A stretch of 64,000 nt of DNA from Candidatus Omnitrophota bacterium (GCA_023818695.1 JAMWCF010000001.1:403306-467305); one strand, 5' to 3'; positions 1,883-46,900 are shown, counted from the first letter of the stretch. A program made the numbers and translations. Notes: generated by a model not told the origin, from the sequence alone.

Positions 1883-3097
1883 GTGGCTCGCTATTCCTTT
1901 GTCGCGCGAACCCGCTTAGGCCAACCCGAGAAAGGGACGATCGAAGCGCCCGACCCGGAATCGGCGATATCGATCCTGCAGGGAAGGGACCTCGTCGTCA
2001 TTTCGGTCCATGAGTCCAAAACCGGGCCGGTCATGATCGGCGGCGGGAAATCGTACCACAAATCCGTTAAAGCAGCCGACCTGGTGATCTTTGCGCGCTC
2101 CCTGGCTGCCATGACGGAAGCTGGTCTGCCGCTCTTGAGAGCCATGGAAGTTGTTGGAGAACAAGCCCGGTCCAAAAAACTCCAGTCGGCCATCAACGAT
2201 ATGACGCGGGATATCCGGGGTGGCTCCTCTTTTCGCGACGCGATCGCCAAACATCCGACCATCTTCTCTCCTTTTTGGGTCAGTCTGGTCGAAACGGGTG
2301 AGGCCTCGGGTCAGTTGACGCGGGGCTTGGAGCAGATCGCCACTCATCTCGAAAAAGCGGGTGCCATCCAGCGCAAGGTCGTTTCCGCTTTGATCTACCC
2401 CGCGATCCTAACCCTGGTCGCCGTCGTCGCTGTTCTCGTCTTTGTTCTGAAGATCATCCCCACCTTCGCCAGCCTTTATGCCGGCTTAGGAACCAACTTG
2501 CCTTTAGTGACCCGGATGGTCATGGCCGCCTGCAATACAATGGTAAGATTCTTCCCTCTTTTCCTCGGAGCGGTCATCTTGTCCTGGCTTTGCTTTTCAT
2601 TCTACGTCGGAACACCAATGGGACGCTGGCAGTTTGACAAGTTCAAACTGCGTGTGCCTCTGATAGGGCCGCTTCTGCAAAACGTCTCGGCGCAAAGATT
2701 CACCTCAAACCTGGCCACACTGCTCAAAGCGGGTGTTCCCATCCTGCACGCGTTGGACATCTCCATCACAACCTGCGAAAACAAAGTCGTTGCGTCGGTG
2801 CTGGAACACATGCGGGCCGGCGTCCGGGAGGGCCGCTCTCTCGCGGAACCCTTAAGCCGTACCGACATTTTTCCCTCTATGGTTTCCCAAATGATCGCCG
2901 TGGGAGAACAGACGGGGAAGCTTTCCTCCATGCTTGAAGAGGTTTCGGAGTATTACGAAGAGCAGGTCAACACGGCGGTGGAACGCTTGACCAGCATGCT
3001 TGAACCGATCATGCTTATCGGGATGGGGTTGGTCATCGGAACACTGGTTGTTTCGATGTATTTGCCAGTTTTCCAAATTTCATCAGCGGTGCATTAA
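1883..3097 (+). CDS. pilC: Type IV pilus / T2SS inner-membrane platform protein (PilC/GspF family)
   Basis: 404-aa ORF starting 1 nt after the pilB stop. It shows the duplicated GspF-type cytoplasmic domain plus TM helices and ends ...GLVIGTLVVSMYLPVFQ, as in PilC/GspF. Confidence 0.9.
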   Translation: MARYSFVARTRLGQPEKGTIEAPDPESAISILQGRDLVVISVHESKTGPVMIGGGKSYHKSVKAADLVIFARSLAAMTEAGLPLLRAMEVVGEQARSKKLQSAINDMTRDIRGGSSFRDAIAKHPTIFSPFWVSLVETGEASGQLTRGLEQIATHLEKAGAIQRKVVSALIYPAILTLVAVVAVLVFVLKIIPTFASLYAGLGTNLPLVTRMVMAACNTMVRFFPLFLGAVILSWLCFSFYVGTPMGRWQFDKFKLRVPLIGPLLQNVSAQRFTSNLATLLKAGVPILHALDISITTCENKVVASVLEHMRAGVREGRSLAEPLSRTDIFPSMVSQMIAVGEQTGKLSSMLEEVSEYYEEQVNTAVERLTSMLEPIMLIGMGLVIGTLVVSMYLPVFQISSAVH

Positions 3098-10216: not shown

Positions 10217-10289
10217 GGGCCGGTAGCTCAGTTGGGAGAGCGCTGCAATCGCACTGCAGAGGCCAGGGGTTCAACTCCCCTCCGGTCCA
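10217..10289 (+). tRNA. tRNA-Ala (anticodon CGC)
   Basis: Cloverleaf folded by hand. The acceptor stem GGGCCGG/CCGGTCC contains the G3:U70 alanine identity pair. The anticodon loop is ATCGCAC and the T-loop is TTCAACT. CCA is not encoded. Confidence 0.95.
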
Positions 10290-21708: not shown

Positions 21709-22567
21709 AAAACCCCAACACGGTTCGCGTATAACTCATCCTGTCCCTGTAAAAACAAGCCACGTGTTCCGATTCCGGAACAAGCCATAAACGTTTTGGA
21801 TCTTTGGCGGCATCGTATATGCTCTGACCATCCTCCCACGGGACGGTCTTGTCGGCTGTGCCATGAATGATCAGAACGGGCCTTGGCGAGACCCTACCGA
21901 CAAGACATTTCGGACTGATCGACTTCGCGCTACAGCCCAACCGCAACTGTGCAAACCAAACGACAATCTGCCCCAGAGGAAACCGGGGAATATGATAGGC
22001 CATTCGCAGCGCCCTCGCAACCGCCTTGCCGAAGTCCCCATAGGCCGAATCGCTCACGACTGCTTTAATTTTCGGAAAGTGGGCCGCCGCAATAATGCCG
22101 ATGGCTCCTCCCATCGATATGCCATAGCACCCGACCGGCAAATCCTTAAATTCGGAAGAGGCGCTAAGGTAATCCAACACTGCTTCAATATCCATCGTCT
22201 CGCGTTTTCCGAAAGAAAAAGTGGATCCTTCGGAACAACCGTGCCCACGGAAATCGATCGAAATCAAATGACATGAGCCATGCAAGGCAAACGCCTGGAT
22301 AACATCCAAGAGATCCGCCTTGCAGGTTCCAAAACCATGAAGCAAAATCAGAACGCCTTGTGGGGAACGGGAACGGACCAGCCACCCATCTAATCGGATA
22401 CCATCCTTGGCTGTAAACCGGACTGGTTCCCAAGGGATTCCAACATCAGAAGGATTGGCGGAAGGTGCATAGCGGGGCTGACGTACGACCCAAGAAGAGC
22501 CAATGATCCCCCATACAACCAGGGACAGAAGGAAAACGAGAAACCAACTCAAAACAAAGGGTTCCAA
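21680..22567 (-). CDS. Alpha/beta hydrolase with an N-terminal membrane anchor
   Basis: N-terminal TM helix, nucleophile elbow GISMGG, and a C-terminal Asp/His region (IHGTADKTVP ... SEHV). Confidence 0.8.
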   Translation of the reverse strand: MEPFVLSWFLVFLLSLVVWGIIGSSWVVRQPRYAPSANPSDVGIPWEPVRFTAKDGIRLDGWLVRSRSPQGVLILLHGFGTCKADLLDVIQAFALHGSCHLISIDFRGHGCSEGSTFSFGKRETMDIEAVLDYLSASSEFKDLPVGCYGISMGGAIGIIAAAHFPKIKAVVSDSAYGDFGKAVARALRMAYHIPRFPLGQIVVWFAQLRLGCSAKSISPKCLVGRVSPRPVLIIHGTADKTVPWEDGQSIYDAAKDPKRLWLVPESEHVACFYRDRMSYTRTVLGFFENEFRRTP

Positions 22568-22585
22568 AAACCGGAATGTCCGTTT

Positions 22586-22948
22586 TTAAAGGGCCTCCCT
22601 GATGCCGCCAAGCCACCGGGAGTAGACAAAATCAAGGAGGCGGGCTAAATCAAGCGGCTTGATGGTGATAATCTTCATCCCCGCATTAACGCCCTTTGCC
22701 CTTTTTCCCTCCTCCGACCAGGTCACCTCGGCTGTGGCGAAAATCGGTATATTGTCCCCAGGCACACGCAGGGTCAAATCAACGTGTTCCCCCTTGCCCA
22801 CTTTGTCTGGGAAAGAAACCCCGAACCCTTCCCTCGAACAATCCCTGATATGGACGCTGCCGGTCAGCATGGAAGGCCCTTTCGCCCAGTATTCAGCTTT
22901 CAAGTCGGTTGATATCCGCATATACTTCCTGCGTTCTTTCGTAGACAT
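22586..22948 (-). CDS. PilZ domain protein
   Basis: ATG at 22948 follows GGAGAAGGAG. RRKYMR and DCSREG motifs are present. The ORF-track start at 22978 is a TTG without a Shine-Dalgarno. Confidence 0.75.
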   Translation of the reverse strand: MSTKERRKYMRISTDLKAEYWAKGPSMLTGSVHIRDCSREGFGVSFPDKVGKGEHVDLTLRVPGDNIPIFATAEVTWSEEGKRAKGVNAGMKIITIKPLDLARLLDFVYSRWLGGIREAL

Positions 22949-22989
22949 GGTTTTCTCCTTCTCCTCCCCGCTGAACAACCATTTTGTAA

Positions 22990-25089
22990 TTATCTTAACA
23001 TATCGGTGGCTTCAACAGGCCGCATTGTAATCAGTCCTTTCCGATACGCCTTTAAAAAAGCATCCACCACCACCGGATCAAATTGCGTCCCGGATCCCCC
23101 TTCGATTTCTTCCACAGCCACCGAATCGGCCAAATGTTTCCGATAAGGACGGTCAGTCGTCATCGCATCAAATGTATCGGCAACCGAGATGATTCTTGTC
23201 ATAAGGGGGATTTCCATTCCCCGCAAACCATCCGGATAGCCACGCCCATCATACCTCTCATGATGCGCTTTGACAGCTTTGGCGACCTCCTCCATCCCTT
23301 TGATTGGCTGAAGGATAATCGCACCCACAATGGAGTGCTCTTCCATTTTCTTAAATTCCTTGGGAGTCAATTTACCTTTCTTGCCGAGAATGTCGTCCGG
23401 TATGCCGATCTTGCCGATATCATGAAGCAATGCGGCAATTTTCAGCGTCTCTTTAAACCGCTGAAACCCCCTCACTTCCGGATGGGACGCGAGCTCACCG
23501 GCTATCACAAGGGAGTAGGCCGTGCACCGTTCCGTGTGCCCATGCGTGTAGGGATCGCGGGCATCCACCGCGGCGGCCAGAGCGATGGCTGTGTGGATGA
23601 AAAGCTGGTGCTCCCGCTCATAAAGCTTCTCAATCTCCGACATCCTCTGGTAGAGCTGTTCGTAAAGCTGCGCGTTTTCCAGGGCGATAGCCCCTTCATT
23701 CGCCAGCGTTGTCAGCAAATCCAAATCTTCCTTCCGATACGGCTCACCGGAAAGTTTGTCCCCCAACACCAAGAATCCTAAAAGCTGGGACTTGCTGAAA
23801 GCCGGAACGCAAATCCTCGAATGCAGCGTTTCCATCTGGGTCCGGACATCCAAAAGATTCCGGCGGAAGACAGACCTCGGAGGAAACATCCGTTCATCAT
23901 TGAGCCAGCGCATGATCTCATCCAAAGAGAGGATTTCTTTCTTCTCTTCAAGCCAGGTGACCAGAGGGTTGTCCCGGTCGACATTCATTCCCACGGGACA
24001 CTTCTCCTTCCCGCGGCTGACTTTCAAAATATAATGGGTGCTGTTCCGGTATAGAATGCCGACATGCGAAACCCTTACCCGCATGCCGATAAAATGGGCC
24101 ATCATTTTTAGGAGGCGATCGATGGAGGTCGCCTTCGCCATACCCCGTGAAGCCTCCTTCAATGTTTTCTGCCATTCAAACCTTCGCTGATAGAGAAGGG
24201 CGTCTGTTGCTTTCGTTAACCAATGGTCCAGGGGACGGACAACCACCGTCACAACGCTTAAAGCCACGGCACACATCCACAAAACCCTCCTGTCCAGGGC
24301 CTGTGGGCCGTAGAATAAGAACTGCCCCAAAAAGACAACGAACACGACAAACAAACCGACAAGGATGGAGTACAGACTCGCATAAATCAGGGTGTTTTTA
24401 ATCACAATCGACACATTCAACAGCTTCCATCGAATCATGGAATAGCCAACCAGAAGATAGAAAAGGATCAAAATCATGCCTCCAGGGGGCGGAGCCACCT
24501 CCCACACGGCCGGGAAGACGGAACACAAACCGGCCATGCCAAAAAGAGAAGCCAGCACCATGTACAGCAACTGGTTTTTATGGCGTCCGCTCTGCGCCCG
24601 GTAGGACCTCAATAAAATCCAGATCGCCGCGGTGTAAACCGCTACAAACCAGAGGGCGAAAACTCCGTAGAACAACCCTGCCGTTGGATAAAAACCGCCG
24701 GAGGGATCAACACGGACGCCGTTCAAAAATAGGGGGGTCGGAATGAGCGCCGTGAAGAGGGCAGCGAAAACCATGTTCCATGTCACAAAAGAAGAGTTGG
24801 TGGCGCCAGGCTGGCTCAAATTTAAGACGAATTTAAAGAAGAAAACAGGAATAAAAGCGAAAGCGATATGCCCTGTATAACTCCACAAAAAAGCCCCGTT
24901 TTCCGAGGTGGAAAACCGGAGCAGGAATGAACTGAAGGCCCAGCAGCTGACGGCAATCGAGAAAGCGAACCATGCGGTGTTAAGGGGGTTTCTCCTGTTT
25001 TTTGAAAATCCCCATAAACCGAAACCCAGACTCATCAGGCCGCATACAGCCATCGGCCATGACCACGCTGCCGCCGAAAACTCCGTCAT
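22990..25089 (-). CDS. Membrane-bound sensor with GAF-like and HD-GYP domains (putative c-di-GMP phosphodiesterase)
   Basis: The N-terminal ~300 aa is multi-TM, followed by a central GAF-like region. The C-terminus has HDIGKIGIPD ... HHERYDGRGYPDGL. Confidence 0.85.
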   Translation of the reverse strand: MTEFSAAAWSWPMAVCGLMSLGFGLWGFSKNRRNPLNTAWFAFSIAVSCWAFSSFLLRFSTSENGAFLWSYTGHIAFAFIPVFFFKFVLNLSQPGATNSSFVTWNMVFAALFTALIPTPLFLNGVRVDPSGGFYPTAGLFYGVFALWFVAVYTAAIWILLRSYRAQSGRHKNQLLYMVLASLFGMAGLCSVFPAVWEVAPPPGGMILILFYLLVGYSMIRWKLLNVSIVIKNTLIYASLYSILVGLFVVFVVFLGQFLFYGPQALDRRVLWMCAVALSVVTVVVRPLDHWLTKATDALLYQRRFEWQKTLKEASRGMAKATSIDRLLKMMAHFIGMRVRVSHVGILYRNSTHYILKVSRGKEKCPVGMNVDRDNPLVTWLEEKKEILSLDEIMRWLNDERMFPPRSVFRRNLLDVRTQMETLHSRICVPAFSKSQLLGFLVLGDKLSGEPYRKEDLDLLTTLANEGAIALENAQLYEQLYQRMSEIEKLYEREHQLFIHTAIALAAAVDARDPYTHGHTERCTAYSLVIAGELASHPEVRGFQRFKETLKIAALLHDIGKIGIPDDILGKKGKLTPKEFKKMEEHSIVGAIILQPIKGMEEVAKAVKAHHERYDGRGYPDGLRGMEIPLMTRIISVADTFDAMTTDRPYRKHLADSVAVEEIEGGSGTQFDPVVVDAFLKAYRKGLITMRPVEATDMLR

Positions 25090-25949
25090 CCCGCCACCTC
25101 CACTAAACCGTGGGTGATGGCCGTCTTTCTGATGACATCCGCCAAACGAATCAGCCCTGCTCGGGTGAAGCTTTCGTTATAGATGACCTTGACCCCTTGG
25201 CGGGTCAAGTCCTCCACCTGCACGTTTCTCGAAACGGGAAGGGCCGAGTTGGACCCATGAATGATGAGCTCCTTTGGTTTCGAAGGGGACATCATGACCT
25301 TTAAAGGGACTTCGCCTCCTGCTCCCAACATCGACAAATCGACCAAAACGATATCCGGTTTGAAAGAAACCAACAGCTTCAAGACCTCTTCCATAGAATA
25401 GGCCGGGGAAATTTCATAAAAACCGCCGCACTTATCGGAATCCGAGAAGAAGACTTCCTTCAGCTTGTAGGTGTACTCGGAAGGTTCGACAAAAAGCAAC
25501 TTGGCTCTCGCTTTAGGTCCTCGGAGAGATTCGGTCGATTCCGGTTGGACCGGAACGGTGTCGGACACCTGCTGTCCCGACAAAACCCTCTCGATGGTAG
25601 CCGTCAGCGCCTCGATGCCGAAAGGTTTTATCAAAAAACCGTCAACGCCGAGTTTTTCGACCATCTCTTGAAACTGGTCGTCATAGGCGGTCACGACAAT
25701 AACTCTCGTTTTTCGGCTGTGGGAATGGATGAATTTCAGGACTTCAATGCCGTTGACGCCCGGCATCTTCATGTCCAGAAGGACCAGATCAACCTCATGC
25801 TGATGCAACAATCGCATGGCTTGCATGCCGTCCAAAGCCGTCAACATCTCGTACCCCTTGCCCATGAAGTAACCGTGGAGGGCAAAGGTAACTTCCTGCT
25901 CGTCATCAACAACAAGCACTTTTTTAGACTCGGACGACTTTAAGACCAT
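25086..25949 (-). CDS. Response regulator: receiver domain plus a second degenerate receiver-like domain
   Basis: KVLVVDDEQE, DLVLLDMKMPGVNG and LIKPF define a canonical REC. The C-terminal half is REC-like but lacks the acidic pair (LLFVEPSE). The stop overlaps the HD-GYP start (ATGA). Confidence 0.85.
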   Translation of the reverse strand: MVLKSSESKKVLVVDDEQEVTFALHGYFMGKGYEMLTALDGMQAMRLLHQHEVDLVLLDMKMPGVNGIEVLKFIHSHSRKTRVIVVTAYDDQFQEMVEKLGVDGFLIKPFGIEALTATIERVLSGQQVSDTVPVQPESTESLRGPKARAKLLFVEPSEYTYKLKEVFFSDSDKCGGFYEISPAYSMEEVLKLLVSFKPDIVLVDLSMLGAGGEVPLKVMMSPSKPKELIIHGSNSALPVSRNVQVEDLTRQGVKVIYNESFTRAGLIRLADVIRKTAITHGLVEVAG

Positions 25950-25977
25950 CGGAGGAACCCTCTATGATGACGGTTAG

Positions 25978-26012
25978 AAAAAAATAAACGTCCACAGAAA
26001 GCCTGTAGACGT
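25978..26012 (-). terminator. Intrinsic terminator inside the 5' leader of the REC/HD-GYP operon (attenuator)
   Basis: On the minus-strand RNA, ACGUCUACAG-GCUUU-CUGUGGACGU forms 10 bp with one G-U pair, followed by UUAUUUUUUUU. It ends about 29 nt upstream of the REC ATG at 25949. Confidence 0.6.
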
Positions 26013-26184
26013 CTAGGTGAGGCACCAGTCCGGGGAGTTGTGGAGCTGGCTGCATCTCTGATTTTCAACCCCTCTCCTGACCCGATCCATTGCACCATCG
26101 GATCTTCTCCCTTTCATCCTCGCGAATGATAACGATGAGGCCGTCCCTCAAGATTTCGACAAAAGGGAGGAGAATCAAGCGGAC
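26013..26184 (-). promoter_or_regulatory. Structured ~170-nt leader RNA of unknown class (candidate riboswitch / attenuation leader)
   Basis: It lies between a near-consensus promoter and the leader terminator. Several hairpins are visible by eye, for example GAUCCGAU-GGUGCAAUGG-AUCGGGUC and CUCCCUUU...AAAGGGAG. I could not match it to any known riboswitch. Confidence 0.4.
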
Positions 26185-26213
26185 AGTATAAAGTTACGCT
26201 TGCGCCGTGTCAA
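26185..26213 (-). promoter_or_regulatory. Near-consensus sigma70 promoter driving the REC/HD-GYP/PilZ gene string
   Basis: On the minus strand: TTGACA (26208-26213), a 17-nt spacer, then TATACT (26185-26190). Confidence 0.55.
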
Positions 26214-26332
26214 CGATTTTCGCAACTCAAAACCCGATGGCAGAAAGCGGCGAAAGAGCAAATCCAGCAAAACATCCGCACTTTTCGAAAGAGCTTCAAC
26301 TATATAATTAATATGAGATTATGAAAATCTCT

Positions 26333-27952
26333 TTATTTTATATTATTTACATAATCAGTAAAATAGCCGCCAGTCAATGCATCAAGCCGTGCTTCCACCT
26401 CTTTCACGCGAAGCATTCTTTCCGAAAGCAGCGTAGGATCATCCGATGGGAGAGCTTCAAACTCGGACAAAAACCTCTGTCTCTGGAAATATAGGTGGGT
26501 CACTTCATCCAGGATATCCTGTCTTAACTGAACCATCAACCGAGATCGCGTGTCGATTGATATGAGGTCCGGATTCCAAATAAGATCGGCCAAATTCCAG
26601 CTTAAATCGAAACCGACCTGAACTGATTCATCTTCGGGTCCGACAAAAAACTGGGTTTCCCCTTTTGCGGAGGAGGATGCGATTGTCCTGTCCTTATCAC
26701 GATCAAGACTGACCCCTATCCGGGGCAGCCAGTGGCGGTAAAAAGCGGCCTGCTTCCAGCGGCTGATCTTACCGGCGCTGACATCCGCATAACGAATAGC
26801 CGCCTCCTGGACATCCCGTATCGAAGGGATCCCGTCAACCTGCAAAGAAAGGGCGGCAGGCCGTTGAGGGTTAACAGCTGCCGGAACCGGAACCTGCAAA
26901 AGTCCTTGTGGGGTTCCAAGCCATAATGAACGACCGTCGGCGCTCAAGGCCATTTCGGTAATATCCATCGGAACAGCCGAAACCTTCAACGAGGACCATT
27001 TTCGGGCTTCGGCACTAAACTGAAAAAGCCCATCCGGTGTCAGGACATACAAGGTCCCGAAATGCCGAAAATCCATCACAATCTGGCGAAATCGGGCCGG
27101 CCGCATTCCTTCCAATGGAACCTCCGTCCAATCATCCCCGCTATTGCGGCTGAGCCACATCCCTTTATCGGTCCACAAACAAATACCGGTAGATTCGCTC
27201 CGGAAAGCCAACCCTCCCGTTTTACCGGAAGAAGATCCCTCAGGGTCCTCTCCGGTTCCCGCTTCGGGATCCTCGCCGACTGGAGCAGGATCCTGCTGCC
27301 GAAACACTCTCTCCCAAGGATCATGCGGCGCTTTGAATCTGAACAAACCACTTTCCATCAAAACATAAGAATAATCGCCCGGAACAGCCGGCGCGGAAAC
27401 GGCCAAAACAGAGTTCCCTTCCGTCTCCTGGCCCGGTTCATTCCAAACGATCCCGCCATCTGAGCTCCATGCAATCCCGCCGCGCGTCTCCACCAGAAGA
27501 AGAGGAGGATCCTCTGCCCCCACGGACAAAGATAAAACCGGATCTTTGAAGCGGCGGAGACGAGCCCACCTCCTCCCTCCGTCATCTGAAAAAAACAGGA
27601 CGCGACCGCTCACCACGTAAAGGGACGTGGAATCGGCTGGATGGACGCACATATCCTGAATTGGTCCCCCAAAAAGAAAACTCCGGAAAACTGTTCTCCA
27701 TGTCCTCCCCCCGTCAGCGGTGCGGTAAAGAGTGCGTGGAGTTCCAGCCCACAGAAGCCCTTCCGATAACCGGTCGGAAACAACCGAAACGATATCCGAT
27801 CCTCCAAGGAAAATTCCCTGCGGAACAGACGCCGACGGCGCTGCCATGTCTCCCTCCGCCCATACCAGCCATCCCACAGACAGAACGCACAGTGCGAATC
27901 CGATACCGAAGAACAAAAGGGCCTTTCTCACATCCCACCTCCTGTTTTGCAT
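26333..27952 (-). CDS. BNR/Asp-box repeat (beta-propeller) protein with an N-terminal anchor and an unassigned C-terminal domain
   Basis: Repeats TADGGRTW, SDDGGRRW, SSDGGIVW and SRNSGDDW. An N-terminal hydrophobic segment, ALLFFGIGFALCVLSVGWLVWA. The start is ambiguous (27952, 27973 or 28021). Confidence 0.65.
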   Translation of the reverse strand: MQNRRWDVRKALLFFGIGFALCVLSVGWLVWAEGDMAAPSASVPQGIFLGGSDIVSVVSDRLSEGLLWAGTPRTLYRTADGGRTWRTVFRSFLFGGPIQDMCVHPADSTSLYVVSGRVLFFSDDGGRRWARLRRFKDPVLSLSVGAEDPPLLLVETRGGIAWSSDGGIVWNEPGQETEGNSVLAVSAPAVPGDYSYVLMESGLFRFKAPHDPWERVFRQQDPAPVGEDPEAGTGEDPEGSSSGKTGGLAFRSESTGICLWTDKGMWLSRNSGDDWTEVPLEGMRPARFRQIVMDFRHFGTLYVLTPDGLFQFSAEARKWSSLKVSAVPMDITEMALSADGRSLWLGTPQGLLQVPVPAAVNPQRPAALSLQVDGIPSIRDVQEAAIRYADVSAGKISRWKQAAFYRHWLPRIGVSLDRDKDRTIASSSAKGETQFFVGPEDESVQVGFDLSWNLADLIWNPDLISIDTRSRLMVQLRQDILDEVTHLYFQRQRFLSEFEALPSDDPTLLSERMLRVKEVEARLDALTGGYFTDYVNNIK

Positions 27953-28026
27953 CAATTGTATACAAATTTGCATATTTAACAAATAATTTTTTGCACGAAC
28001 TGCAATAAAAGCCAGATCCAAGGAAC

Positions 28027-28055
28027 TTGACGCTCATCTGGATTGCTGGTATCGT
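28027..28055 (+). promoter_or_regulatory. Candidate sigma70 promoter of the XRE-cupin regulator (nearly leaderless)
   Basis: TTGACG (28027-28032), a 17-nt spacer, then TATCGT (28050-28055). The ATG at 28063 is only 7 nt downstream. Confidence 0.35.
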
Positions 28056-28062
28056 CGGTCTT

Positions 28063-28614
28063 ATGAAGGCCCTGGGCAAACGGGTGCGGCTTTATCGGCT
28101 GCGCCAAAACCTGACACTCGCCGATCTCGCAAAGAGATCGGGAATAGCGCTTTCCACCCTAAGCCGCATTGAAACCGGCAAGATGACAGGCACGCTGGAG
28201 TCTCACATAGCCATCTCCAAAGCGCTCGGAATTCGCCTTCCCGAACTTTATTCGGATCTGGATTCCAACGGCCCCCCTCTCGAAATCCGCAGAAGCTCTC
28301 AAAAGGACCGGCAATTCAGCATCAGAGGTACTCACTTGACCGTCCTTGTGTCCAACGCCCTCCAGAAGAAAATGCTGCCGGTCATCATTCAGCTACCTCC
28401 AGGCAAAGCTTCGAGAGAAGAGCAACCGCCTGCCGGTACAGAGAAATTTCTCTACGTCCTAAAGGGAAAATGCGCGGTGTCAACAGGGGAACAACAGATT
28501 GTTTTGAACCAGGGGGACAGCGCTTATTTTCAGGCAGCGCTTCAATACTCACTCAAAAACGTGGGATCAACCAAATCTCTTATCTTGAGCACTTCCTGCC
28601 CCCCAGCAATTTAG
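28063..28614 (+). CDS. XRE-family HTH transcriptional regulator with a C-terminal cupin domain
   Basis: The HTH is LTLADLAKRSGIALSTLSRIETGK. The C-terminal cupin-like strands are FLYVLKGKCAVSTGEQQIVLNQGDSAYF. The start is taken at MKALGKRVRLYRL. Confidence 0.8.
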   Translation: MKALGKRVRLYRLRQNLTLADLAKRSGIALSTLSRIETGKMTGTLESHIAISKALGIRLPELYSDLDSNGPPLEIRRSSQKDRQFSIRGTHLTVLVSNALQKKMLPVIIQLPPGKASREEQPPAGTEKFLYVLKGKCAVSTGEQQIVLNQGDSAYFQAALQYSLKNVGSTKSLILSTSCPPAI

Positions 28615-29003
28615 CGGGCCTGCTCCACCAGAAGGGGATAGCGGACCTTCAGATCCCCATTTAAAAGGACCTCAATCGCGTATTCACCCGGCTGGGCCAA
28701 TTCCAGGTTGCTGAAGCGAGCAATAACCGAGTGCCTGCCTTTCAAATTCGTCAGGTGGAAAACGGTTTCCTTGTCTCTGGCGATTTCCTGGCCGGCTGGA
28801 TCCAAAATCCGGCTGTACTGCTTGAACGAGCCGACACCGCCAACCCAGCCGTTGACAACAAAAAGGGTCGGGTGGACTGCCGGGAATTCCCGCGCCCCGA
28901 TCGTCTCAAACATGCCGATAAGGATGAACTTTCCATTCTCTTCTCTCCGCACGTCATCGCAGAGAACGGAATAAAGCAGGGAGGGCTCTATAGAGGTATT
29001 CAA
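28611..29003 (-). CDS. Hypothetical protein (possibly DUF6941-like)
   Basis: 130-aa ORF whose start overlaps the upstream PilZ stop by 4 nt. The N-terminal pattern LLYSVLCDDVRREENGKFILIGMFETI...FP resembles what I recall of DUF6941, but that is from memory only. Confidence 0.45.
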   Translation of the reverse strand: MNTSIEPSLLYSVLCDDVRREENGKFILIGMFETIGAREFPAVHPTLFVVNGWVGGVGSFKQYSRILDPAGQEIARDKETVFHLTNLKGRHSVIARFSNLELAQPGEYAIEVLLNGDLKVRYPLLVEQAR

Positions 29004-29416
29004 GGAGCGGTAGCGGGGGCTATCTTGTCGAGCAGGGCCTCTAATCGAGACTTATCATCCGGGGAAAGGCCTGAAAATTCGATGCCGGTGTCGAAACTCT
29101 GCTTCCGTTTGATGTCTCTGCGAAGGACGACCCACACAATCGTTCCTTGGGATCGGATGGGGGGCTTGCCGTCTTCAACGGTGAGCTCCAATTCAACGGG
29201 CGAAAAGATATCCAGTCCCCTGTCCATCAGAACGCAGACTCCGCCCAACCCAATATTCTCCGTGACGGTGGAGATAGACGAGGTTCCTCCCGCTTGCCGG
29301 AGCTTTATGACGCACCGCGATTTGACCCTCGGAAACCGGCGTTGGTTTATTCCCTGCCACACGGCCTGTGCCCTCCTTATGCTTCCTCTTATAGAGGATA
29401 TTGAATCAAATTGCAA
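29000..29416 (-). CDS. PilZ domain protein (variant second motif)
   Basis: QRRFPR (RxxxR) and NIGLGG (NxGxxG rather than NxSxxG). The C-terminal half is a beta-barrel-like PilZ domain. Confidence 0.7.
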   Translation of the reverse strand: MQFDSISSIRGSIRRAQAVWQGINQRRFPRVKSRCVIKLRQAGGTSSISTVTENIGLGGVCVLMDRGLDIFSPVELELTVEDGKPPIRSQGTIVWVVLRRDIKRKQSFDTGIEFSGLSPDDKSRLEALLDKIAPATAP

Positions 29417-29453
29417 GGGATTCTAAATCGTGATACCCTGATGTCGACGAGCT

Positions 29454-30314
29454 ATGTACGAAGCCTTCTACGGATTCCGGGAGAAACCCTTCCACGTCAC
29501 GGCCGACCCTGCGTTCCTCTACCTGTCCCGGCAGCACCAGGAAGCCATGGATCACTTAAGCTATGGGCTTCAGCAGCGCCTCGGCTTCCTCATGATTACG
29601 GGAGAGGTCGGCACGGGAAAGACGACAGTAGCGCGGGCCCTGGTTGACAAACTGGCCGGCATCATTCATACGGCCCTCATTTTGAACCCGGCTCTTAGTG
29701 GTACCCAGCTGCTTCAAGCGATCGCCAAAGATTTCGGCATTCTGCCTGATCCAAAAACGCGCCGCCTGCCAACCAACCGCGGAGAACTCATCGGACTCAT
29801 TGAAAACTTTCTGCTTAAACAGGCCGCTGCCGGCAGTTATTGCGTCCTGATCATCGATGAAGCCCAGGCATTGAGCTTGCAGGCGCTGGAACAGGTTCGC
29901 CTTCTTTCCACCGTTGAAACAACGAAAGCAAAATTGCTCCAAATCATCCTGGTTGGACAGCCGGAGTTGATCGAACGGCTTGAAAGGAATTACAGACTGC
30001 GGGCTCTTAAAGACAGGATCGCCGTCAAATACCACATGCAGCCATTAACCGAGGAAGAGACTGGCGCTTACATCAACCACCGGCTGCGCGTGGCCAGCGC
30101 GGAACGTCAGATCCCCCGTTTCACGGAGGGCGCCATCTCCAAAATCGCGTCTCTATCCAACGGCATACCACGACGAATCAACAGGATCTGCGATAACGCC
30201 CTTTTGGCTGGTTTTGTTCATGAAGCGTTCACGATCGATGAAAAACTGGTGGAAGAAGGGCATATGAACCGCGTTCATGACACGGATACGGTGCCTTATT
30301 TTACAAATACCTGA
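29454..30314 (+). CDS. ExeA/MshM-type AAA ATPase (short form, no peptidoglycan-binding domain)
   Basis: MYEAFYGFREKPF at the N-terminus, Walker A ITGEVGTGKTT and Walker B LIIDEAQAL. At 286 aa it matches the MshM-like short forms. Confidence 0.85.
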   Translation: MYEAFYGFREKPFHVTADPAFLYLSRQHQEAMDHLSYGLQQRLGFLMITGEVGTGKTTVARALVDKLAGIIHTALILNPALSGTQLLQAIAKDFGILPDPKTRRLPTNRGELIGLIENFLLKQAAAGSYCVLIIDEAQALSLQALEQVRLLSTVETTKAKLLQIILVGQPELIERLERNYRLRALKDRIAVKYHMQPLTEEETGAYINHRLRVASAERQIPRFTEGAISKIASLSNGIPRRINRICDNALLAGFVHEAFTIDEKLVEEGHMNRVHDTDTVPYFTNT

Positions 30315-46826: not shown

Positions 46827-46900
46827 TGGAGCGGGTGGAGGGAATCGAACCCTCATCTGAAGCTTGGGAAGCTTCCATTCTGCCACTGAACTACACCCGC
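46827..46900 (-). tRNA. tRNA-Gly (anticodon CCC), CCA encoded
   Basis: The reverse complement is GCGGGTGTAGTTCAGTGGCAGAATGGAAGCTTCCCAAGCTTCAGATGAGGGTTCGATTCCCTCCACCCGCTCCA. It folds into a cloverleaf with anticodon loop TTCCCAA. Confidence 0.95.

Follow-up and report, generated by a model that had tools for sequence, protein, structure and literature searches.

A structured leader with a terminator inside its ORF upstream of Omnitrophota sensor operons, a probable ribosome-mediated transcription attenuator

Leader ORFs that act on terminators and the locus in the window

In the pyrL leader of the Escherichia coli pyrBI operon, terminator formation is prevented by a ribosome that translates the leader in tight coupling with RNA polymerase (PMC5021804, citing Roland et al. 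1988). Reporter work has found that a ribosome translating an ORF represses intrinsic terminators that lie within the ORF or directly behind it (PMC4824070), and the ilvB-II motif of Corynebacterium, a structured noncoding RNA candidate, proved to hold a conserved upstream ORF, or uORF (PMC10272879). The element described here lies on the minus strand of a 64-kb stretch of Candidatus Omnitrophota DNA, hereafter the window. In its logic the element comes nearest to ribosome-mediated attenuation of the pyrL type, to which it adds translational coupling and a start region that is structured and conserved. As in pyrL, a leader ORF with its own Shine-Dalgarno (SD) sequence reads through an intrinsic terminator ahead of a structural gene, and the peptide sequence appears unimportant, with selection acting on translation instead. 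The leader ORF of rph-pyrE ends just before its terminator, unlike the read-through seen here. The element has no sequence relationship to pyrL, and no U-rich, UTP-sensitive pause tract was seen in it; its uORF starts inside a covarying multi-helix domain and has a stop overlapping the downstream start codon, and the operons under its putative control are signalling operons rather than pyrimidine genes.

Structured sensory RNA and short ORFs are also combined in the mgtA and mgtCBR leaders of Salmonella, where translation of mgtL and mgtP alters the fate of the leader. These ORFs have about 17 codons, include Pro or other regulatory codons and end before the region of termination, which is Rho-dependent. 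The element differs from these leaders in that its ORF spans an intrinsic terminator and holds no regulatory codon run. The uORF attenuators trpL, hisL and ilvB share with it a promoter-proximal uORF and an intrinsic terminator, but here tandem regulatory codons are missing, the uORF reads on into the terminator instead of stopping ahead of it, and no conserved antiterminator that could alternate with the terminator was apparent by eye in the family alignment (A6), in which the spacer before the terminator is variable. To our knowledge almost nothing is known of gene regulation in the uncultivated Omnitrophota, and no description of the element was found in the literature on Omnitrophica/Omnitrophota riboswitches, attenuation and uORFs or on HisKA_7TM. 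The element is a phylum-level, undescribed cis-regulatory family and provides a concrete, testable regulatory device for this group.

The features of the leader in the window are as follows.

26213-26185, minus strand: sigma-70-type promoter TTGACA-17-TATACT (boxes 26213-26208 and 26190-26185), 11 of 12 consensus matches
25979-26180, minus strand: whole leader element (structured RNA, uORF and terminator), a full-length match to covariance model R1
26164-26173, minus strand: P1 5' strand UCUCCUCCCU, a C/U-rich version, at the position of family helix P1
26114-26129, minus strand: helix P3 hairpin UCAUUC-GCGA-GGAUGA, read from the sequence, at the family P3 position
26107-26111, minus strand: SD-like GGGAG of the uORF, 8 nt before the AUG
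26079-26104, minus strand: helix P4, GAUCCGAU / AUCGGGUC, arms 26104-26097 and 26086-26079
25940-26098, minus strand: uORF of 52 codons, MVQWIGSGEGLKIRDAASSTTPRTGASPRRLQAFCGRLFFSNRHHRGFLRWS and stop, reading through the terminator and conserved in homologues
26025-26049, minus strand: helix P6, supported by covariation, with the conserved loop ACUCCCC (26038-26032) complementary to the uORF SD
25978-26015, minus strand: intrinsic terminator ACGUCUACAG-GCUUU-CUGUGGACGU then UUUAUUUUUUU, inside the uORF

The original prediction placed a consensus-like promoter, a structured leader and a strong terminator ahead of a gene for a receiver (REC) protein, and this layout is real and conserved in homologous copies. 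The promoter is the top promoter-like site within 22000-30000, and RNA would start near 26178-26180 on the minus strand. The terminator stem (26015-25985) has 14 pairs followed by TTTATTTTTTT to 25978 and is the strongest terminator-like site in the same 8-kb stretch, with 28 nt between its T-run and the REC ATG (25949). The 201-nt leader folds at -73.1 kcal/mol (z = -2.47 against dinucleotide shuffles), and the stable GAUCCGAU/AUCGGGUC hairpin pointed out earlier corresponds to family helix P4. Upstream of the promoter, an A+T-rich spacer (26214-26340, minus strand) separates it from a BNR-repeat gene (stop 26333) and contains a small inverted repeat, GAGAUU...AAUCUC. Two weaker promoter-like sites are located at 26362-26335 and 26327-26299.

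Rfam 15 at the gathering score returned nothing in the element for either the window copy or typical copies, in keeping with the earlier failure to recognise a known riboswitch core, and a permissive search of 25850-26450 and of the typical copy L087 gave chance-level matches only (E of at least 1, and above 2 throughout 25850-26450, with bits far below gathering). GEMM-I and GEMM-II riboswitches sit 5' of c-di-GMP signalling genes and often use terminators. Neither GEMM-I (RF01051) nor GEMM-II (RF01786) matched the element even at E up to 10; its architecture is different from theirs and it also precedes operons without a c-di-GMP domain. The sole Rfam matches in the 64-kb window were two tRNA genes, at 10217-10289 on the plus strand and 46830-46900 on the minus strand.

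Homologous copies and covariation of the fold

About 26 homologous copies were identified in Omnitrophota MAGs and metagenomes. The leader is carried by 8 of the 17 orthologous REC loci in species-representative genomes, with equal promoter spacing and a nearly identical terminator, while a terminator-pattern scan of metagenome contigs gave 16 further copies and contigs encoding the uORF peptide another 4. Two matches of the pattern scan, L093 and L094, were rejected as chance matches within coding regions. A TTGAC-N17-TAnnnT box is found at equal distance in most homologous copies. Model R1 aligned with the window copy over its full length (model positions 1-206 of 206; 49.4 bits, E about 1e-10), and neither the covariance model nor a pattern search allowing 3 mismatches located a second copy within the 64-kb window. 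Antisense matches of the model were to the palindromic terminator only.

The per-sequence folds and alignment A6 agree on a layout of P1, an optional P2, P3, a junction, P4, P5, P6, a spacer and the terminator. P1 is a long-range helix in which a 5' UGUCGUACCC pairs with GGGUACGRC and P2 is a variable hairpin. The P3-P4 junction is the purine sequence AAGGAGG, and P4 has the form CGAUCC-GAUGnnAG-GGAUCG. After P5, a variable stretch, P6 (GCUUAGC-ACUCCCCGA-GCAAGC) is separated by a variable spacer of 10-12 nt from the terminator, ACGUCUACGG-NCUUU-CCGUAGACGU and a U-run, the sequence of which is nearly invariant. Alignment of all copies with MAFFT and RNAalifold recovered only P6 and the terminator, as the 5' half was misaligned. 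A 10-sequence seed misplaced P1 of three copies (L084, L088 and L097), and R1 was therefore built from 7 copies with a hand-written structure.

The homologous upstream regions were compared for covariation as the original prediction had proposed. Double changes, on both sides of a pair, occurred in 20 of the 37 pairs in A6 against a shuffle mean of 8.9, and none of 500 shuffles reached the observed number. Standard pairs made up 91.4% of the pair cells compared with 37-47% once partners were slid by 1-3 columns, and the covariation score was 0.256 compared with at most 0.10 in the slid versions; A6 is fitted to the model and so favours the structure, and the slid controls use the same alignment. 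Covarying pairs were distributed over P1 (7/10), P3 (5/5) and P6 (4/6), while the terminator pairs were paired in 99.5% of cells and three of them never vary. This comparison establishes the 5' two thirds of the leader as a covarying multi-helix domain in which P1 closes P3 and P4, followed by P6. With a covarying fold that is absent from Rfam, the earlier description of the region as an unclassified cis-regulatory attenuator holds.

Divergence within the family is greatest in the window copy and in L001, its nearest relative. The P1 5' strand is C/U-rich in both and can pair with uORF codons 8-10 or with the SD region; in the window its possible partners are 26077-26069 (homologous P1) or, in the MFE fold, the uORF SD region at about 26114-26105. 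Only about 6 of the 10 P1 model pairs are standard in the window, and the covariance model alignment leaves its P3 unpaired (1/5 model pairs standard).

Two further complementarities were noted. The P6 loop ACUCCCC (26032-26038) is complementary to the SD (26107-26111; GGGAG in the window and GGAG in most copies), and in L001 both are altered (CCCUCUU with AGGAGGG). One might speculate that the loop (CUCC) and the SD (GGAG), both of which vary little, form a pseudoknot that closes the start site once P6 has been transcribed. The sequence AU(C/U)AU is conserved just 5' of P3 (about 26126-26130; A6 columns 56-60) and is complementary to the start-codon AUGA/AUGG (26095-26098; A6 columns 95-98). 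These partners are very invariant, and their contact could, again as a speculation, sequester the start codon.

The near-invariant sequences of P4 and the terminator stem go beyond what ribosome blocking alone would call for and hint at a further partner, a protein or a tertiary contact. Antitermination or attenuation in which a sequence-specific RNA-binding protein governs hairpin formation or the initiation of the uORF, for instance CsrA on the GGA-rich start region or a regulator from the operon on the invariant terminator hairpin, is in our estimate very unlikely to be the explanation of the element. It would account for conservation of the terminator-stem and P4 sequences beyond pairing needs, the operons do encode regulators, and the several GGA motifs about 18 nt apart in the uORF start region would, speculatively, suit a CsrA-like repressor. 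ANTAR targets carry a pair of hairpins in tandem, each with a hexanucleotide loop that has A at position 1 and G at position 4, and the second hairpin overlaps the terminator. This signature of two hexaloop hairpins is absent here and speaks against the protein-mediated reading, the terminator loop being the 5-nt NCUUU and the loop of the preceding P6 10 nt or longer. Control by a protein is nonetheless compatible with ribosome-mediated attenuation and not exclusive of it.

The upstream ORF and its passage through the terminator

The leader had originally been described as lacking a convincing ORF, which is incorrect as the 52-codon uORF (26098-25940) follows GGGAG by 8 nt and is conserved in homologues. 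Its AUG (26098-26096) is located where the 3' end of the P4 5' arm meets the loop, and the uORF ends, stop codon included, 10 nt past the first nucleotide of the REC ATG. Of the 22 aligned copies, 20 have a start codon in the P4-loop column (18 AUG and 2 GUG), with L011 and L090 lacking that column, and in most copies the ribosome-binding site reads AAGGAGG, 7 nt, AUG. The uORF is 40-60 codons long across the family, and in the family layout it passes over the 3' strand of P1, P6 and the entire terminator hairpin.

Frame 0 runs without a stop codon to the end of the terminator stem in 18 of 20 copies, and frames +1 and +2 do so in 1 of 40. In L086 and L098, both of which have GUG starts, the uORF stops ahead of the terminator, in L098 about 7 nt before the stem, and these truncated uORFs are accompanied by longer spacers and good downstream SDs. 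The frame in which the terminator is read depends on the lineage. The peptides end in ...NVYGLSVDVF in copies with 107, 110, 113, 116, 119 or 125 nt between the AUG and the end of the stem, and in ...RLRAFRRRF in the window, L001, L082 and L095, where this interval measures 111 nt; the distance class that would place the terminator TAG in frame never occurs. The uORF overlaps the start of the next gene in 14 of 16 copies, its stop codon finishing 4-14 nt past the first nucleotide of that gene's start codon, and six of the overlaps are of the ATGA or GTGA type. Independent gene calls likewise gave overlaps of 4-8 nt between the uORF and the downstream gene, and several downstream genes have no SD of their own.

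A peptide-profile search of public data retrieved 43 unnamed proteins of 39-78 aa that correspond to the uORF and have hypervariable tails after ...VDVF, so that at least 43 public entries for "hypothetical small proteins" represent leader ORFs, which is a caution for annotation. No single-amino-acid runs or tandem regulatory codons were found in these 43 peptides or in the 20 from the aligned copies. Where pairs of P1 and P6 covary, the encoded residues change as well (GYD to GCE and AS to SG are examples), and variability at unpaired sites was 0.83, 0.86 and 0.87 at codon positions 1, 2 and 3 (eight indel-free copies), with no codon periodicity. As frame 0 is kept open while the frame across the terminator is lineage-dependent and codon periodicity is absent, selection appears to act on translation itself and not on the peptide.

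These data bear on the possibility that the uORF is a gene for a small protein of about 45 aa (M..VV..GGYD..LATPRAS..NVYGLSVDVF), for example a signalling or regulatory peptide for the 7TM sensors, to which the downstream gene is coupled and for which the RNA structure is secondary. The peptide pattern is common to the 43 database proteins, the SD and AUG are strong, the frame is open with in-frame indels (+3, +6, +9, +15 and -3 nt), and the association with 7TM receptor genes is constant. Leader peptides can also act in trans, as does peTrpL (PMC7298713). A protein-coding function is, on the other hand, difficult to reconcile with an intrinsic terminator inside the coding region ahead of the stop codon, with a post-terminator tail that is hypervariable in length and sequence, and with the missing third-position excess of variability. 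The peptide search recovers same-frame copies only, and the apparent conservation of the peptide is therefore partly a selection bias. Since the C-terminal frame was switched in at least 3 lineages including the window, residues change where the helices covary and there is no codon periodicity, a conserved small protein is downgraded to a doubtful explanation.

The uORF also bears on the reading of the element as a classical metabolite riboswitch, in which an aptamer formed by P1, P3, P4 and P6 would bind a ligand that directly sets terminator formation and the uORF would be incidental. There is an aptamer-like fold backed by covariation, a multi-stem junction with highly conserved junction nucleotides (20/37 pairs compensatory, 91% of cells paired), with an intrinsic terminator directly after it and a position that is always 5' of a gene. 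It would have to be a new class given its absence from Rfam, and the 7TM-GAF sensors shared among the neighbourhoods could indicate a common signal. This reading leaves unexplained the frame 0 bias (18/20 against 1/40) and the stop-start overlaps, and the conserved junction is itself a consensus SD and AUG. No conserved alternative partner for the terminator arm was seen by eye in A6, where the 10-12 nt spacer is variable, and the first genes are heterogeneous (REC, HMG-CoA reductase, SRPBCC/dehydrogenase, methyltransferase, acyltransferase and thioesterase). A riboswitch of this kind is unlikely. The original proposal of a novel riboswitch or attenuator is thus borne out in its attenuator half; a ligand riboswitch is not the simplest reading and would be possible only as an addition that gates uORF initiation. 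A candidate "riboswitch" can thus be a composite of an RNA fold and a translated uORF.

Short forms of the leader, with a brief leader and the conserved terminator hairpin before a REC gene, were observed in L017 (2925-2981) and L091 (3488-3576, minus strand). The short form in L091 contains a 26-codon ORF that begins near the 5' end and has the TAG in the terminator 3' arm as its stop.

Operon context and proposed mechanism

The four operon genes downstream of the element in the window are as follows.

25086-25949, minus strand: REC gene (receiver and uncharacterised C-terminal domain, 287 aa), first operon gene
25089-22990, minus strand: HisKA_7TM-GAF-HD-GYP, second operon gene
22978-22586, minus strand: PilZ, third operon gene
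22567-21680, minus strand: hydrolase, fourth operon gene

In each copy a same-strand gene begins at most about 60 nt past the T-run. The element is found upstream of different operon types, with one copy per locus examined. Type A loci are syntenic with the window and have the order PilZ, DUF6941, HTH/cupin, BNR protein, element, REC-X, 7TM-HD-GYP, PilZ, hydrolase and PilZ; L105 has the gene order of the window. Type B loci have tandem HisKA_7TM kinases, the element, a variable enzyme, a 7TM-GAF kinase and two REC genes. The variable enzymes include an HMG-CoA reductase, an SRPBCC protein with a dehydrogenase-like domain, a methyltransferase-aminotransferase, an acyltransferase-HAD and a putative thioesterase, the last assigned by eye. 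Directly upstream of the element, 2-5 paralogous HisKA_7TM kinase genes lie in tandem in L100 (1-7896), L102 (4605-7849) and L104 (1686-5708), and the stops and starts of these type B kinase genes often overlap.

The association with a c-di-GMP operon in the original prediction is not specific, as the element also precedes operons of an enzyme, a 7TM-GAF histidine kinase and REC genes and is missing from 6 of the 17 orthologous REC loci. The common denominator of the element loci is a 7TM-sensor operon and not c-di-GMP as such. The element marks HisKA_7TM/GAF sensor operons, encoding kinases or an HD-GYP phosphodiesterase, and may for this reason help to define a regulon and its signal. At the 6 REC loci without the element, a comparable promoter lies within 10-25 nt of the REC start and the leader is entirely missing, indicating that the element is a facultative module between promoter and gene. 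The promoters of these leaderless loci (L005, L006, L008, L009, L010 and L012) are of the TTGACAGG-N17-TATAGT type and lie at about 2950-3000 in each.

The same arrangement bears on whether the terminated transcript of about 200 nt could itself be the product, a trans-acting sRNA whose P6 CUCCCC loop pairs with the SDs of target genes, with read-through being leakage. The element has its own promoter, a strong terminator, a stable fold and a C-rich loop in the last hairpin before the terminator, a loop that resembles those of RsaE/RoxS-type sRNAs. The position and orientation of an sRNA gene would be unconstrained, whereas all of the approximately 26 copies are co-oriented with an adjoining gene before which a separate promoter would not fit, and where the element is absent a comparable promoter drives REC directly. 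The conserved uORF, with a stop that overlaps the start of the next gene, would also be unexplained. We consider an sRNA improbable as the sole function, and a dual role as attenuator and sRNA is possible.

A terminator inside an ORF and before its stop codon means that the RNAs ending there are non-stop and that those continuing have had the hairpin suppressed, an arrangement that is sensible only as an attenuator. With a uORF that passes through the terminator and stops at the start codon of the gene that follows, ribosomes most likely decide the transcription of the operon. Given the fold, ribosome-binding site, conserved open frame, embedded terminator, stop-start overlap and cis arrangement, each of which the sequence comparison establishes, we regard the region with moderate confidence as a member of an Omnitrophota family of cis-acting, ribosome-mediated transcription attenuators with translational coupling. 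Outside the pyrimidine genes of enterobacteria, it would be a natural case of a leader ORF that contains a terminator and is coupled to the start codon of the gene behind it.

In the proposed mechanism a ribosome would initiate at the AUG in the P4 loop, trail RNA polymerase closely and melt P1 and P6. By covering the 5' arm of the terminator it would keep the hairpin from forming and transcription would go on, after which the ribosome terminating on the uORF would reinitiate at the overlapping start codon of the first gene, giving translational coupling. If the uORF were left untranslated, with the SD and AUG held in the P3/P4/P1 fold or with translation lagging, the terminator would form and a non-stop transcript of about 200 nt would be released. 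The conserved P1/P3/P4 fold would have to open for 30S binding, so that uORF initiation is the likely regulated step, and the fold could respond to temperature, a protein or a ligand. By acting as pause hairpins, P1 and P6 may also keep ribosome and polymerase in step. Sensing of the pyrL type needs a nucleotide-sensitive pause, and inspection of A6 by eye revealed no conserved pause tract, U-rich or of a similar kind.

A tentative extension of ribosome-mediated attenuation is that P1/P3/P4 form a true sensor, either a riboswitch of a new class or a fold that responds to a protein or to temperature, gating a uORF that disarms the terminator and hands the ribosome onward. If so, RNA sensing, antitermination by a pioneer ribosome and translational coupling would make up a three-layer device set before 7TM receptor signalling operons, including the c-di-GMP HD-GYP operon of the window.

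The genes around the operon are also conserved. PilZ and DUF6941 (together 28611-29416, minus strand) and a divergent AAA_22 ATPase (29454-30314, plus strand) are neighbours in L105 and another Omnitrophota contig as well, which suggests a larger conserved gene neighbourhood related to c-di-GMP. The REC protein is 100% identical to a Candidatus Omnitrophica MAG protein and has hundreds of orthologues, the sources of which, where named, are Omnitrophica/Omnitrophota, with other MAGs labelled 'uncultured Planctomycetia'. Its C-terminal half of about 160 aa has no Pfam match but is conserved, many of its residues being invariant among 31 orthologues (such as P198 D199 ... G252 E259 F261 T262), and may be a degenerate second receiver.
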